From a virus (lineage: Duplodnaviria > Heunggongvirae > Uroviricota > Caudoviricetes): a stretch of 64,000 nt of DNA. Shown here piece after piece: positions 39,723 through 63,979 of the stretch (positions within the stretch are counted from its first letter, which is position 1; each line of letters starts with the position of its first letter). The notes below the pieces were generated by a model. The model ran no database searches. It was given only the letters and a program-made list of their open reading frames with translations, and had not been told where the DNA came from. The stretch is from positions 1 through 64,000 of IMG/VR virus record IMGVR_UViG_3300017978_000250; one strand, written 5' to 3'. The position numbers and the translations under genes are program-made.

Positions 39723-40973
39723 ATGATATTTAACCCGAGAGACTATTCAGTAATTTTTCTTAGTTTCGATGAACCGAACTGTGAAGAAAACTATCAACAC
39801 CTTTTGACACTTTGCCCCACTGCTCTTAGAGTACATGGAGTAAAGGGTTCAGACACCGCACACAAAGAAGTTGCTAAACTTTCTAAAACTTCTAACGTGA
39901 TTATAGTCGATGGTGATAATTTTGTCAAGCCTGAATTCTTCACTAAGACTTTTAACTTAGTAGATTCAGTGGACTTGAGTACTACTGTTTTAAGTTATAG
40001 TGCTTTCAACCCTGTAAACGGGAACTCTTATGGGAACGGTGGCATCAAAGTCTGGCCCGTTTCCAAGCTACTTTCGATGAGAACACACGAAAATGCGACT
40101 GAGGGAACTAGTGTAGACTTTGACTTTAAGAGCTACTTAGAGCTAAATTTTGTTGGTTCTATCACTGACATTACAGCAAGTCCGTTGCAAGCGTTTAAAG
40201 CTGGGTTCCGTGAAGGATCCAAGCTATGCATGGAAAACAATCAAATAGTCACATACGTAAATGAGATAAACTGGAAGAACTACGAAAGACTATGGCGCTG
40301 GACTCATATTGGTGGTGACGTAGAGAACGGTTTATGGGCAATCTACGGAGCTCGTATGGGCTACTACATGTCAATGGTTCACAGGGGTGACTTTTCTAAG
40401 ATTAAAGATGCTGACCATTTGAAGGCAGTGTTCAACGAAACAACGTTTAACTTAACATCTTTGTTTACCGAAGTGAACAAACTTACCCCGTTGATTCGCA
40501 AGGCAACAATGGATAACAGATTTGTTGACATATATGGAATCGAAGAAAGCAAAGAATTCAGAGAGAAAGTTCCCTGCACGATTCGTGGGTTACAGGATTT
40601 CATCAAGTATCAATACAACGAGACACCGCAAGTGTTCTTTGTGGGCGCCGGGTCTGATGAAAATTTCAATAGGCTGTTGCAAAAAGAACCCAAAGCAACA
40701 AGAGTAGATTCATATCTCAGTGCCGCACAACAGGCAACTACAGATTATTTTTGGGTAGTCGATTCAAATCAATATATAGTAGATAGATTCGAATTTGAAT
40801 TCAACGTTCCATTCTACGACAACCCAAAAACTAGAGTGTGGCGAAATCAACGTAATGCAAATGATACAGTATACGGAGAGAACGGAGTAAAGTTGTTGAA
40901 TAGATTTTCAACAATCATAGGCGAACAACTACCGGTCGAATCTATATTTGAAATCAGTAGCATCAATGACTAA
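39723..40973 (+). CDS. hypothetical protein, possible nucleotide-sugar (DxD) transferase
   Basis: Start set at MIFNPRDY; IIVDGDNFV DxD-like motif; function weakly supported. Confidence 0.5.
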   Translation: MIFNPRDYSVIFLSFDEPNCEENYQHLLTLCPTALRVHGVKGSDTAHKEVAKLSKTSNVIIVDGDNFVKPEFFTKTFNLVDSVDLSTTVLSYSAFNPVNGNSYGNGGIKVWPVSKLLSMRTHENATEGTSVDFDFKSYLELNFVGSITDITASPLQAFKAGFREGSKLCMENNQIVTYVNEINWKNYERLWRWTHIGGDVENGLWAIYGARMGYYMSMVHRGDFSKIKDADHLKAVFNETTFNLTSLFTEVNKLTPLIRKATMDNRFVDIYGIEESKEFREKVPCTIRGLQDFIKYQYNETPQVFFVGAGSDENFNRLLQKEPKATRVDSYLSAAQQATTDYFWVVDSNQYIVDRFEFEFNVPFYDNPKTRVWRNQRNANDTVYGENGVKLLNRFSTIIGEQLPVESIFEISSIND

Positions 40974-41937
40974 CCCAATAAACTTTTCTGAAATCCCATT
41001 TGATAAGATAGTAAAATTCGGACAAGACACAATGCTAGACAAAGACTTGTTTAGCGTTAGTTGGATTCTGGGTAGATTCTGCAACTACAAATGCAGCTAT
41101 TGCTGGCCCTATGCTAACAGTCAAACACCTGACCATCAAGAGTTAGAAGTCTATACACGTGCGATAGACGAGATTAGATTCCAAGCTGCGAACAACGGGT
41201 TCACTAAGTTTCACTGGAGCTTTAGTGGGGGTGAGCCCACAGCATACAAACACTTGCCCGTACTAATGAGTAAGGTCTTGTATGATAGTGTTCACATGAC
41301 AACTAACTTGAGCCCAGGCATTCAATGGTGGGATAGATGGTTAGAGAACACACAACTAAGCAGACGCCGTAGTCTCACCGCAAGCTATCATCACGAGTTT
41401 GCAAACGAACAAGAGTTTGGAGACAAGATACTTCACTTGATGAAGAACAATGTATTTGTCACTGTAAATCAAGTTATGGTCCCTGGACACTTTGATGAAC
41501 TATATGAACGTTGTGAACGTTTCCATAAGCGTGGCATCAACGTAACACTAAAGCCACAGAGCAATGAACAAGCAAACGGGATAGTTGATGGTTACACTGA
41601 CGTTATGATACACAAGATGCGTACAGGGTTTCCGCAACAAGTAAACGAACAAGAACTATTGCAAGTTAAACTAATAGACGACACTAAGAAAGTGTGGTGG
41701 CTTGACCAAGCTGAACGTTTCAATAGTTTTGGGTTCAACAAGTTCAATGGCTGGACTTGCAATGCTGGATATCAAAGTGTTATAATAAGGGGTAATGAAG
41801 TTAAACGAGCATACAGTTGCCATGCAGCAGAATTAGGAACATTAGATAACTTTACGCTATTTGATAGCCCTGAGCGATGTGTTACACCTACATGTGTTAG
41901 TTCCGCAGACAGTAAGATACCAAAATGGAAAGACTAA
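40948..41937 (+). CDS. radical SAM enzyme with SPASM/twitch-like C-terminal Cys cluster (paralog group A)
   Basis: CNYKCSYCW CxxxCxxC, FSGGEPT, C-terminal WTCNAGY...SCH...CVTPTC cysteines. Confidence 0.8.
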   Translation: MKSVASMTNPINFSEIPFDKIVKFGQDTMLDKDLFSVSWILGRFCNYKCSYCWPYANSQTPDHQELEVYTRAIDEIRFQAANNGFTKFHWSFSGGEPTAYKHLPVLMSKVLYDSVHMTTNLSPGIQWWDRWLENTQLSRRRSLTASYHHEFANEQEFGDKILHLMKNNVFVTVNQVMVPGHFDELYERCERFHKRGINVTLKPQSNEQANGIVDGYTDVMIHKMRTGFPQQVNEQELLQVKLIDDTKKVWWLDQAERFNSFGFNKFNGWTCNAGYQSVIIRGNEVKRAYSCHAAELGTLDNFTLFDSPERCVTPTCVSSADSKIPKWKD

Positions 41938-61882: not shown

Positions 61883-62577
61883 ACTAACACCTCATGATTA
61901 ACGTAAGTTCCAGAGACATTTTGTTCAATACATGCTCTATCAAATTGTTCTTTCCACTCGTCTGTGCAATCTAGTCTATGGATGATTAAGTGATATCTAT
62001 CCTCATTGCTTTCATTTTTAACACTGTGTGGATAATGTATATTCATAACATATGTTTTGCCGGGTTCCATGAACAATGATTCACCGTCTCCCCAATTCCA
62101 CATGCAATTTTCAGGGTTACTCAAACTGATATTAGTATTGTCTAATAACGGTACACGTGAATCATTGTGCTCTGCAATATACCCACCCGCTTCAACTAAC
62201 ATAAAGCGAACTCTACCGAATAATTTGCTTGGGAATTTGTTCTTAACAAAGTCTACAGTTACTGGACATTGTTTAGATATTTCAGTCCAGTGCATGTCTT
62301 GTACTACTTGTTCAATATCAGTGTATCCATATTGTTTCCAGTGATCCGATTTGTCTGCTGACAATCCATGTAGCACTAAACTCTTCCACCCTTTATGGTC
62401 ATAACTTCCAGAGCGGTGTGTTACAAAATGTTCTCTGAGATTCTTTGCTTCCTGCAGCATTGCTTGATAATCAATTTCAAAAGGCAACGTAAGAAACTTA
62501 GCATTAGAAACAAAGTAATCTTTGTTCAGTGTCATTAAATATTCTCCTATCCAATATTTATCAATAAATACCTTCAT
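61879..62577 (-). CDS. cupin / Asp-beta-hydroxylase-like oxygenase
   Basis: GGYIAEHNDSRV...HYPHSV. Confidence 0.5.
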   Translation of the reverse strand: MKVFIDKYWIGEYLMTLNKDYFVSNAKFLTLPFEIDYQAMLQEAKNLREHFVTHRSGSYDHKGWKSLVLHGLSADKSDHWKQYGYTDIEQVVQDMHWTEISKQCPVTVDFVKNKFPSKLFGRVRFMLVEAGGYIAEHNDSRVPLLDNTNISLSNPENCMWNWGDGESLFMEPGKTYVMNIHYPHSVKNESNEDRYHLIIHRLDCTDEWKEQFDRACIEQNVSGTYVNHEVLV

Positions 62578-63979
62578 GATTCAAAAATTCGAAACTAGGT
62601 GCGGCGAAGGAAAAATCGCTATCTGCATCCATGACATATTCTCATCTTGCACCAGCGATTGGACAAAAGAGATAGCAAAGAACTTGACTGATTACTTGCT
62701 AAATCGTTCTTTACAATATGGGTTCGATGTGTTTGCTAGTGCCGATGAAAAGTTGTTAATCGAAACTGCAACCAATGAGGGGTACACCCATTGTGTTGTT
62801 ATAGCTGCTGGAACCGGTACGAAACTGTCAGATAGATTGTTTCAGGAAATTAGAAAAAAGTGTAGCGAAGATTTTTATATCGCAGGGCATGTACTAGACA
62901 GAGAAGACAAGTACTATGAACTACATCATCAATTTTATATTCTCAATCTTAGTATTCACAAAGAGCTAGGATTACCAGAACTGGGCGAGAGTTTGGATAT
63001 TCTTCATTCTAAGCTAAAACCTTTGTCTAAAACAAACGACGGGTATATTGCACAAGAACTGTCTCAGGGTACAGAATTAGTTGAATACTCGGGCACTATG
63101 CACGGACATAACATGCTATCTGTTGCATTGTCGCATAACAAAAGAGTTATTGATTTGGGTGAGGGAATTAGAAATAACAAAAAGTATTTCTACTATGAAT
63201 ACGACCATGTGTTTTTAAAAGAATCAACGTCACTGTTTTACAATAAGTTCTTCTTCAATAACATTGTTGTACCCATGAACAGCGATATGTTGCGAGAAGA
63301 AATATCATACACTGGACCAGTAGAGCAATATGTAACTCTTGGCACCGGATTAAATTGGGTTGAGAATTTACATCTGATGGGTTACACAGAAGAAACAGAA
63401 GTGTTCTTTACTGACTATAACCCACTAGTGTTGCAGTTTATGAAAAGAATGGTTAATGAATGGGACGGTAAAGATTATATTGATTTCTATTTAAAGCAAG
63501 ACTTTATAATTCCCAACAACATTCCATACGATTTCGATGCATACATTAATCAATGTAGACAACAGTGGGAATCGTTTGTTAGCAAAATAAAAGACTGGGA
63601 CACTAAGTGGAATAACGTCCGACAGTTAAAGTTTCACTTTATATCAGCCGATTACATGAGTGATTATAACTTTGATTGGTTTAGTGGCAACAAGAAAACA
63701 ATCTTCAATGCTAGTGACATGTTTGACCATGTACCTAATACGTTTGACCAAAGTATGAAATTTAGAATAGCCGCAGAGAATAGATTTATTAATAAGCTAA
63801 AGAATAAAAACCCTGAGTTAATGCTGCTTTGGTCTGGACGTGCAGCATCACAGTTACTACCAGAAGGGCATCAACCTAAGTTTCAACCAATCAGTGAAGT
63901 AGCACTAATTGATATGGATACTATTACTCGTCCTTACTGGCACAAAGACGATTGGAATGTTTTAAGACCGTTAGTGTAA
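62576..63979 (+). CDS. hypothetical protein (possible methyltransferase-like)
   Basis: Start at MIQKFETR (CATG palindrome shared with the divergent gene start); YVTLGTGLNWV glycine-rich segment. Confidence 0.5.
   Translation: MIQKFETRCGEGKIAICIHDIFSSCTSDWTKEIAKNLTDYLLNRSLQYGFDVFASADEKLLIETATNEGYTHCVVIAAGTGTKLSDRLFQEIRKKCSEDFYIAGHVLDREDKYYELHHQFYILNLSIHKELGLPELGESLDILHSKLKPLSKTNDGYIAQELSQGTELVEYSGTMHGHNMLSVALSHNKRVIDLGEGIRNNKKYFYYEYDHVFLKESTSLFYNKFFFNNIVVPMNSDMLREEISYTGPVEQYVTLGTGLNWVENLHLMGYTEETEVFFTDYNPLVLQFMKRMVNEWDGKDYIDFYLKQDFIIPNNIPYDFDAYINQCRQQWESFVSKIKDWDTKWNNVRQLKFHFISADYMSDYNFDWFSGNKKTIFNASDMFDHVPNTFDQSMKFRIAAENRFINKLKNKNPELMLLWSGRAASQLLPEGHQPKFQPISEVALIDMDTITRPYWHKDDWNVLRPLV

Follow-up and report, generated by a model that had tools for sequence, protein, structure and literature searches.

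An island of radical-SAM enzymes and Fe(II)/2-oxoglutarate oxygenases in an uncultured T4-like jumbo phage: a virus-specific tailoring gene set, tentatively linked to fibre-like proteins

Introduction

What does a phage modify with nine radical S-adenosylmethionine (SAM) enzymes and eight oxygenase-like proteins packed into about 24 kb? The question is raised by the right-hand part of the IMG/VR virus record IMGVR_UViG_3300017978_000250 (Caudoviricetes), of which positions 1 to 64,000 were analysed (hereafter the window). The island, at 39.7-64.0 kb, comprises 28 open reading frames (ORFs; g1-g28, Table 1) and consists to 99.1% of coding sequence, the gaps measuring at most 71 nt. A previous inspection of the DNA letters, made with no database search (the sequence-only reading), had described it as a candidate, previously undescribed hypermodification system bearing the hallmark of proteusin/polytheonamide-type pathways. 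On the present analysis, a modular and virus-specific set of tailoring enzymes, found in variable regions of aquatic T4-like phages, has in this island its most complete version known. As for function, we tentatively favour a late-expressed decoration of a virion-surface polymer made by the phage, most likely fibre-like proteins (g26 and those of the Mtd_N type), a reading that falls well short of certainty.

A recurrent gene set essentially restricted to viruses

The island encodes nine radical-SAM enzymes, including two whose N-terminal domain is of the B12 type, and eight Fe(II)/2-oxoglutarate (2OG)-oxygenase-like proteins, together with two kinase-like paralogs, a pyridoxal-phosphate (PLP)-enzyme-like protein and a short fibre-like protein. 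All island proteins were compared by tblastn with about 80 loci harboring the B12-type enzyme, which most of the island families were found to accompany, and all ORFs were clustered. Of 72 non-redundant loci, at least five of 17 core families were present in 23 and at least ten in 12. Gene order was shuffled, and four adjacencies persisted, namely the B12-type enzyme with the zinc-ribbon radical-SAM enzyme, the kinase-like gene with g24, the AspH-like gene with g28, and the twitch radical-SAM enzyme with the g2/g6/g7 family. The enzyme density of the island cannot be due to chance, because the same families recur together elsewhere; the island is the fullest version seen of a coherent recurrent gene set, not a random pile, and the earlier view of a phage-encoded, coherent set holds. 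The B12-type enzyme occurred alone in 33 of the 72 loci and is therefore independent of the other families. In T4-like contigs, such a lone gene followed the portal gene at a distance of 18 nt (L100) or separated gp15 from gp13 (L099), and homologs were also found inside tRNA arrays (L023/L048, 10001-11194; L055, 10001-11320) or beside one (L026, L028, L083). These arrays, from several independent viral contigs, have 8-33 genes in the same orientation as the B12-type enzyme.

Metagenomic relatives of the B12-type enzyme number 718, none of them named, and IMG/VR contains 174 confirmed matches. Among 50,697 GenBank phage records, tblastn returned no match for g12, g14 or g20, and a single marginal match for g27, in a mycobacteriophage (23% identity, E=3e-4). 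A search of 185,579 species genomes gave just two matches with at least 40% identity, both on 22-25 kb contigs of metagenome-assembled genomes (MAGs), one with 16 tRNA genes (L083) and the other with a single one; both contigs look viral. Two distant 'bacterial' loci (L084, L085) had the same cassette plus an Mtd_N fibre gene. More broadly, the MAG contigs L082-L085, assigned to Pseudomonadales, Bacteroidetes, Crocinitomicaceae and Neomarinimicrobiota, carried the viral cassette, Mtd_N fibre genes and/or tRNA arrays, and, judged by this content, they are probably mis-binned phage sequence, including the 335-kb L085. The island families are essentially virus-specific, and cultured phages and cellular genomes are almost entirely devoid of them.

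The relatives also contained accessory genes encoding a class III aminotransferase, an NAD epimerase/GDP-mannose-dehydratase, a fatty-acid desaturase, TauD, a Trp halogenase and a QueC-like PP-loop ATPase. In addition, the B12-type enzyme was flanked by an adenosine-phosphosulfate (APS)-kinase-like gene and a sulfotransferase in L021-L023, L058, L059 and L081 (around position 10000), suggesting that sulfation belongs to the same tailoring repertoire.

Radical-SAM enzymes

All nine radical-SAM assignments of the sequence-only reading were confirmed, as PF04055 scored 33-55 bits (gathering cut-off 29.5) and exactly one canonical CxxxCxxC motif was present in each protein. The same reading had credited most of them with SPASM/twitch-like Cys clusters, which was borne out by PF13186 in g5 and g9 and by NF033640 in g9 and g11; g2, g6 and g7 do have C-terminal Cys clusters, which matched no SPASM profile. 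Both g9 and g11 are full-length members of the NCBIfam family NF033640 ('twitch domain-containing radical SAM'), and g11 showed a median identity of about 60% to its homologs in related loci; a literature search on the twitch family retrieved nothing on NF033640.

The two B12-type enzymes, g14 and g21, share 41% identity. Their PF02310 scores were under the gathering score of 32.1, yet the match had the correct N-terminal position and domain order; the nearest solved structure was TokK (E=1.5e-6). The zinc-ribbon enzyme g22 scored 92 bits against the TrsS model and 88 bits against the Tes model, both far under cut-off, and its family adjoined the B12-type enzyme in eight non-redundant loci. 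The expectation that close homologs would not prove to be characterised was upheld, the nearest being Cpz10, for one of the oxygenases, and TokK. Overall, the N-terminal-twitch radical-SAM enzymes, the viral B12-type radical-SAM clade and the g20 oxygenase make up at least three enzyme families without a characterised member.

A defence role, as a prokaryotic viperin or another PADLOC system, was considered and rejected, given that the similarity was generic to the radical-SAM core: PADLOC matches to pVip models were partial, covering at most the first ~155 of 257 model positions at 29-53 bits. Among cultured phages, twitch-type homologs were seen in Ralstonia phage RsoM2USA (L102) and the jumbo Vibrio phage K566 (L103), with neighbouring genes all annotated as hypothetical. 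In K566, three radical-SAM genes, distant relatives of the island twitch enzymes (21-24% identity), lie among four consecutive genes (161548-165950).

Fe(II)/2OG oxygenases and the conserved protein g20

The HxD/E...H facial triad on a double-stranded beta-helix, by which Fe(II)/2OG oxygenases are recognised, was found in oxygenase-like proteins of the island. The earlier oxygenase calls were supported by PF05118 for g27, by a match to Cpz10 for g12, and by an invariant HxD...H in g15, g17, g18 and g19 (32-sequence alignment A3), for which the PDB matches were weak and all to 2OG oxygenases; for g25 the support was weak. The family profile of g12 matched the Cpz10 structure (PDB 7v4f) with E=3.8e-20 over about 100 residues. 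Moreover, the g27 family adjoined the g28 family in six loci.

The remaining member, g20, is the most conserved protein of the cluster, with 834 matching sequence clusters and 72-95% identity among the best 120 of the 834, and with neighbours in the same phages sharing merely 30-60% identity. Such constraint is unusual for a phage accessory gene. The nearest folds of g20 included free-proline hydroxylases, and the profile search of the PDB gave no significant match for it.

Promoter-type signals at the island border

The window contains 18 perfect TTGACA-N16-18-TATAAT promoters, compared with 0.05 expected, all on the minus strand. Seventeen of them are located on the left (7494-39928) and one within the island (46215-46243), before g7. 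Three (39562-39928) lie just within the island border, pointing toward the tRNA array; g1, encoded on the other strand, has its start overlapped by them. Many of these sigma70-type promoters have a common spacer, AATAAATC..TTTTGG.

The T4 late-promoter core ATAAATA, rare overall, shows the opposite distribution. It occurs ten times in the window, in eight cases with an ORF of 50 codons or more whose ATG begins 4-20 nt downstream, and five of the ten are directly upstream of the island genes g10, g12, g22, g27 and g28. The motif lies 5 nt upstream of g10, g12 and g28; g22 is preceded by TATAAATA, GGAG and then its ATG, and g27 by ATAAATA, GGAG and then its ATG. Across 22 related loci, 64 of 104 ATAAATA motifs had an ORF beginning no more than 30 nt downstream, most often at 4-5 nt, compared with 7-15% of composition-matched heptamers, and the genes behind them included cluster genes and Mtd_N fibre genes. 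The spacing to gene starts was either 4-5 nt (dominant) or 19-20 nt, and the shorter one would imply leaderless or near-leaderless late mRNAs. The island border thus coincides with what appears, from motif type and position, to be a switch from early-type to late-type signals.

The g27-g26-g25 operon and fibre-like proteins

g26 is the sole clearly non-enzymatic conserved gene of the island. It is flanked by two AspH-like genes, g27 upstream and g25 downstream, with a 4-nt overlap between g27 and the start of g26. L004 and L104 keep the g27-g26-g25 order, there with an Mtd_N-type fibre-like gene and a g28 homolog alongside. In BLASTP, g26 matched the C-terminal ends of Mtd_N-type fibre-like proteins from two loci, L080 (E=7e-11) and L011 (E=2e-7), and the C-terminal motif is invariant in the 18 members of the g26 family. 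The C-terminal domain is common to g26 and the Mtd_N-type proteins, which adjoin the cluster in 11 loci in total. We take the motif to resemble a foldon-type trimerisation hairpin. The AlphaFold2 model of g26 was all-beta with low confidence (pLDDT 60, pTM 0.33), and a BFVD fold search with this poor model gave no match at E<=0.001.

Proposed function and alternative explanations

If fibre-like proteins are the substrate, with the island expressed at a late stage of infection, their side chains would be hydroxylated by the Fe(II)/2OG oxygenases. The SPASM, twitch and zinc-ribbon radical-SAM enzymes would abstract hydrogen from unactivated carbons, so as to form cross-links or C-C bonds or to cause epimerisation. 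C-methyl groups would come from the two B12-type enzymes, and the methyltransferase-like and kinase-like proteins would cap the new hydroxyl groups; substrate, reactions and timing are what we infer from the gene families, the operon and the promoter-like motifs. A pelagimyophage report places radical-SAM cassettes in the tail-fibre-rich host-recognition cluster (PMC7029224), and beta-hydroxylases encoded with tail-collar or collagen-like proteins have been predicted to modify them (PMC2938197). A more specific version, in which a virus-specific system common among uncultured aquatic T4-like phages brings proteusin-like chemistry (radical C-methylation, epimerisation or cross-linking, and multiple hydroxylations) to folded virion fibre proteins without a leader peptide, seems rather doubtful. 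Several observations weigh against fibre decoration as a whole. Homologs of g26 accompany a minority of clusters (18 proteins), and Mtd_N genes occur in ~11 of ~70 loci, a frequency not clearly above chance for a variable region. The ATAAATA motifs mostly lie only 4-5 nt from the ATG, a spacing unusual in T4 late promoters, and the promoter of g7 is of the early type. Where other cluster proteins are 30-50% identical, g20 is far more conserved (among its best 120 of 834), which suggests an invariant target rather than a fast-evolving fibre. Furthermore, families typical of small-molecule, sugar or lipid chemistry are present, including g10, the QueC-like ATPase, the aminotransferase, the epimerase/dehydratase, the desaturase, the APS kinase with sulfotransferase, and the Cpz10-like oxygenase.

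These last families point to a possible alternative that is nearly as likely as fibre decoration, namely the tailoring of a host metabolite, a sugar or nucleotide-sugar, an envelope lipid or lipopolysaccharide into a heavily hydroxylated and C-methylated product, which might serve as a secondary metabolite, as a surface glycan of the virion or the cell, or as an altered membrane lipid. The aminoglycoside tailoring repertoire of B12-type radical-SAM methylases, twitch radical-SAM enzymes, PLP enzymes, kinases and 2OG oxygenases is mirrored by the island. g12 is related to Cpz10, a hydroxylase of a nucleoside-amino-acid intermediate (E=4e-20), free-proline hydroxylases are among the nearest folds of g20, g10 bears a PLP-enzyme signature, and the best, weak NCBIfam matches of the B12-type and zinc-ribbon enzymes were to the ladderane-lipid B12 radical-SAM enzyme, HpnJ/HpnR, PhpK and Tes. 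The relatives add the desaturase, epimerase/GDP-mannose-dehydratase, aminotransferase, TauD, Trp halogenase, QueC-like ATPase and APS kinase plus sulfotransferase, and amino-acid-derived metabolites were proposed by Iyer et al. for the cyanophage dioxygenase arrays (PMC2938197). However, profile scans found no scaffold-forming enzyme in the island (nonribosomal peptide synthetase, polyketide synthase, cyclase or profile-supported glycosyltransferase), 33 of 72 loci make do with the B12-type enzyme alone, frequently within structural modules, one of the oxygenase operons includes a conserved fibre-like protein, and a pathway of at least 20 steps late in a lytic infection is hard to explain. It is unlikely, though conceivable, that there is no single system, but a variable accessory zone of independent single-enzyme genes whose recurrence reflects shared ancestry and insertion hot spots. 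The frequent solitary B12-type enzyme (33 of 72), the extensive shuffling, the promoter-like motifs of many individual genes, the differing contexts across phages (tRNA arrays, frd-td region, neck/portal region) and the varying accessory content would all fit this. Yet the same 10-16 families stay together even where the orthologs of different phages share only 30-60% identity, particular adjacencies outlast the shuffling, and paralogy within the cluster points to diversification around one task.

The remaining candidates are peptides and nucleic acids. A free proteusin-like ribosomally synthesised and post-translationally modified peptide (RiPP), its precursor encoded elsewhere in the genome, is improbable. 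SPASM radical-SAM enzymes, B12-type radical-SAM enzymes and 2OG hydroxylases do constitute the polytheonamide toolkit, and weak matches to the maturase models PapB, ApyD and TIGR03975 were obtained; nevertheless, all scores were 10-20 times under the cut-offs (18-31 bits versus 280-750 for the RiPP maturase models; 17.9 and 21.3 bits versus 282 for TIGR03975, a RiPP C-methyltransferase model). A search for free small ORFs (20-110 amino acids) in the island found none, confirming the earlier impression that no precursor is recognisable, profile scans of the island detected no leader-binding (RRE) domain, protease or transporter, and the small ORF families conserved in related loci do not adjoin the enzymes. 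Since the island has no precursor and no gene at the curated cut-off of a RiPP, queuosine, wybutosine or defence model, its assignment to the proteusins is unsupported. Modification of tRNA or the translation apparatus is about as improbable. It is suggested by the 44-tRNA array that lies ~800 nt from the island, by the B12-type enzyme inside (L023/L048, L055) or beside (L026, L028, L083) arrays in independent relatives, by PP-loop ATPases and Bud32-like kinases, which are typical tRNA-modification folds, and by the extreme conservation of g20, which would fit a conserved host macromolecule. Against this, arrays are near only ~6 of ~36 independent loci, which by rough estimate is close to mere co-location in variable regions, no island protein reached the cut-off of tRNA-modification models (TYW1, QueE, MiaB-type), and the array would be driven by early promoters, the island by late-type motifs. 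Post-replicative DNA hypermodification is the least probable of all. Phage thymidine hypermodification employs kinases, PLP enzymes and a radical-SAM enzyme, kinase-like and PLP-like genes are present in the island, and some relatives have a QueC-like gene and adjoin frd-td; however, the 19 non-radical-SAM island proteins had no significant family among the PHROGs, which are built from sequenced-phage proteins, the QueE models, with cut-offs of 206-260, gave 33-37 bits, homologs of the known thymidine and 7-deazaguanine pathway enzymes (5-hmdU kinase, aGPT-Pplase, DpdA/TGT, QueC/D/E) did not turn up in these scans, the island has neither a DNA glycosylase nor TGT/DpdA nor a hydroxymethylase, QueC is missing from the window, the oxygenases belong with AspH, Cpz10 and proline hydroxylases and not with TET/JBP, and expression looks late. 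In addition, most island enzymes have an acidic isoelectric point (mostly 4.8-6.6), which speaks weakly against nucleic-acid substrates and is not relied on here.

Comparison with known systems

In polytheonamide maturation, C-methylation is carried out by the B12 radical-SAM enzymes PoyB/C, epimerisation by the radical-SAM enzyme PoyD and hydroxylation by the 2OG hydroxylase PoyI. The island has the same three enzyme classes, and its set could act on a ribosomal polypeptide; unlike that system, it has no NHLP/Nif11-type precursor, leader-recognition domain or model-level membership, and its candidate substrate is a folded fibre-like protein instead of a leader-guided peptide. Among giant viruses, Mimivirus encodes the collagen hydroxylase/glycosyltransferase L230 and PBCV-1 a prolyl 4-hydroxylase. 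The likeness to the decoration proposed here lies in a virus-encoded Fe/2OG hydroxylase acting on a fibrous structural protein of the virus itself, whereas those viruses are eukaryotic and use one or two enzymes on collagen-like substrates without radical-SAM chemistry. Cpz10 is a 2OG-dependent beta-hydroxylase of caprazamycin biosynthesis, a Streptomyces nucleoside-antibiotic pathway (PMC9814697). It is the nearest characterised relative of g12 and has the same HxD...H core, but g12 is extended at both its N- and C-termini, and the remaining caprazamycin genes are lacking. Likewise, NF033640 membership of g9 and g11 gives no substrate, the family being without known function.

The sequence-only reading had called the system previously undescribed, which is true only in part, as two comparable arrangements are in print, neither of them ever explained. 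In the gp49-gp54 region of Syn9, tandem dioxygenase/halogenase arrays of T4-like cyanophages were described (Iyer, Abhiman, de Souza and Aravind, 2010; PMC2938197). Similar to these, the island belongs to an aquatic T4-like phage, lies in a variable region and has many different tandem 2OG-oxygenase genes, with a Trp halogenase in its relatives; g17, g18, g19 and g20 are contiguous on the minus strand, g15, g12, g25 and g27 are nearby, and rIIA, rIIB and an RnlA-like gene are in the window. It differs in that its oxygenases g12 and g20 have no match, and g27 only the marginal mycobacteriophage match, in the GenBank phage records, and in that it adds nine radical-SAM enzymes and kinase-like, PLP-like and fibre-like genes. 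The second arrangement is that of the pelagimyophages (2020; PMC7029224), likewise uncultured aquatic T4-like phages, for which the report describes radical-SAM cassettes that come and go in a fibre-rich variable region, and an AspH-family gene within the phage core. The cassettes are mentioned there in passing, without a gene census, and the likeness drawn here is by description, not by sequence; in addition, the pelagimyophage genomes compared here from its table have 30-35% G+C and 0-2 tRNAs, compared with 0.36-0.45 and 44 tRNAs for the present phage. Set beside these dioxygenase arrays and radical-SAM cassettes, the island is a much richer relative of both.

Other island genes and phage background

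The remaining island genes gave few profile matches (Table 1). In the PHROG scan, which covered the 19 non-radical-SAM proteins, two marginal matches (E ~0.004) were to families of unknown function. The kinase-like family g13/g23 matched the TTK kinase domain (E=2.5e-6) and, weakly, Bud32. For g10, a weak threonine-aldolase match (E=0.16) was confined to the signature stretch, and the PDB profile search gave nothing significant for g10, g28 or g24, the last with only a GNAT hint (E=0.17). The former labels of a DxD-transferase (39723), an SGNH hydrolase (41925) and a Rossmann methyltransferase (42554) found no profile support. An Rfam scan of the island detected no riboswitch and no other RNA. 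The hairpin at the left border, once called a bidirectional terminator, exists and passes the terminator scan on the minus strand only. G+C content is 0.36-0.38 in the island (40001-64000) compared with ~0.40-0.45 upstream (1-40000), and AT and GC skews reverse sign at the border.

Table 1. Genes and signals of the island, with coordinates in the window
Feature	Coordinates	Strand	Assignment and evidence
Terminator-like hairpin	39272-39305	-	13-bp stem, then T run; left island border
g1	39723..40973	+	No Pfam/PHROG match; family f85, elsewhere in only 3 loci: L017/L018, L085
g2	40948..41937	+	Radical SAM; PF04055 40.6 bits; CNYKCSYC at residue 45 plus 5 later Cys (C-terminal cluster); paralog of g6, g7
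g3	41925..42599	+	No profile match; N-terminal FGCSLSYG resembles SGNH block I (read from sequence)
g4	42554..43210	+	Class-I methyltransferase-like glycine motif without profile support; family in 10/72 non-redundant loci
g5	43197..44288	+	Radical SAM; PF04055 41 bits; C-terminal SPASM PF13186 23.8 bits, both above cut-off; in 16/72 non-redundant loci
g6	44281..45321	+	Radical SAM; PF04055 54 bits; CNYKCEYC plus C-terminal Cys cluster; g2/g6/g7 family
g7	45301..46197	-	Radical SAM; PF04055 49.6 bits; g2/g6/g7 family; C-terminus vs STM4011-family model 4e-11, below cut-off
g8	46185..47000	-	No profile match; elsewhere only in L041 and the near-identical L003
g9	46997..48244	-	Radical SAM, N-terminal twitch/SPASM; NF033640 341 bits (cut-off 170); PF13186 42.8 bits, residues 8-68
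g10	48231..49097	-	PLP-enzyme-like; fold type I signature D162-G-A-W ... S-L-S-K190 invariant (alignment A8)
g11	49138..50568 (ORF 49060/49138)	+	Radical SAM, N-terminal twitch; NF033640 394 bits (cut-off 170); paralog of g9
g12	50585..51265	+	Fe(II)/2OG beta-hydroxylase, Cpz10/AspH type; invariant H96-x-D98 ... H140
g13	51262..51948	+	Protein-kinase-like fold; paralog of g23; catalytic-loop Asp not conserved
g14	51945..53411	+	B12-binding-domain radical SAM (class-B methylase-like); PF04055 45.5 bits; PF02310 30.4 bits
g15	53413..53985	+	Small Fe(II)/2OG-oxygenase-like; g15/g17/g18/g19 family
g16	53966..54523	-	No profile match; short Rossmann/short-chain-dehydrogenase-like (SDR-like) N-terminus (TGNPEHGGIA); in 6/72 non-redundant loci
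g17	54516..55040	-	Small Fe(II)/2OG-oxygenase-like paralog
g18	55042..55548	-	Small Fe(II)/2OG-oxygenase-like paralog
g19	55545..56045	-	Small Fe(II)/2OG-oxygenase-like paralog; 41% identity to g18
g20	56047..56850	-	Helical N-terminal half plus double-stranded beta-helix oxygenase fold; no Pfam model
g21	56847..58310	-	B12-binding-domain radical SAM; PF04055 46.8 bits; PF02310 23.0 bits
g22	58307..59365	-	Radical SAM; N-terminal HMPTM-type zinc ribbon PF23545 62.8 bits (cut-off 27); PF04055 55 bits; Tes/TrsS/HMPTM-like
g23	59420..60109	+	Kinase-like paralog of g13
g24	60087..60653	+	Alignment A7; probable start GTG at 60087; usually beside kinase-like gene (7 loci)
g25	60654..61241	-	Weak AspH-like; PF05118 (Asp_Arg_Hydrox) 18.7 bits, below cut-off; last gene of g27-g26-g25 operon
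g26	61313..61882	-	Short all-beta fibre-like protein; candidate substrate; C-terminal motif NGMxIYN..T.KFQGYANG.WVDLH
g27	61879..62535	-	Aspartyl/asparaginyl beta-hydroxylase family; PF05118 56.5 bits (cut-off 22.6); ATG at 62535
g28	62576..63979	+	C-terminal half with SAM-methyltransferase-like motif; weak PF04672, E=0.006; alignment A9; conserved neighbour of g27
ATAAATA motifs	49103-49110, 50573-50579, 59386-59393, 62555-62561, 62564-62570		Upstream of island genes

The source is an uncultured T4-like jumbo phage. The left 39 kb of the window carries, on the minus strand, the T4-type genes rIIA, rIIB and an RnlA-like RNA ligase, along with NAMPT and an NMNAT-Nudix fusion. The best GenBank relatives of rIIA are in PA5oct-like phages, with just 37% identity, and megablast against GenBank phages gave no match for the island or for the first 25 kb of the window. 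One 33.5-kb IMG/VR contig (L003) is almost identical and spans most of the island. The tRNA array comprises 44 genes at 24381-38883 (minus strand), among the largest reported for a phage-like sequence, with many duplicates, e.g., two Gln-TTG, two Glu-TTC, three to four Met-CAT and two Ile-GAT; a 472-aa protein beside it matches a PHROG 'RNA-binding protein' family. Positions 615-5886 and 25110-26528 (minus strand) hold an SPFH/Band-7 protein, an AAA ATPase, NAMPT, the NMNAT-Nudix fusion and this 472-aa protein; NAMPT and the fusion form an NAD salvage pair as in KVP40-like phages. A link to cobalamin supply via the upstream AAA ATPase (1550-2596) was considered and dropped, as Pfam gives a generic AAA domain only.

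Significance

If the island is one system, it is among the densest radical-SAM arrays known to us in a virus, and it includes uncharacterised families. The g27-g26-g25 operon would offer a testable enzyme-substrate candidate for the purpose of the large oxygenase/halogenase/radical-SAM arrays in variable, fibre-rich regions of aquatic T4-like phages, and, if proteusin-like chemistry did act on folded fibre proteins, this would represent a new class of structural-protein hypermodification. Whatever the substrate, the chemistry, comprising B12-dependent C-methylation and twitch-domain radical reactions, is likely to be new.

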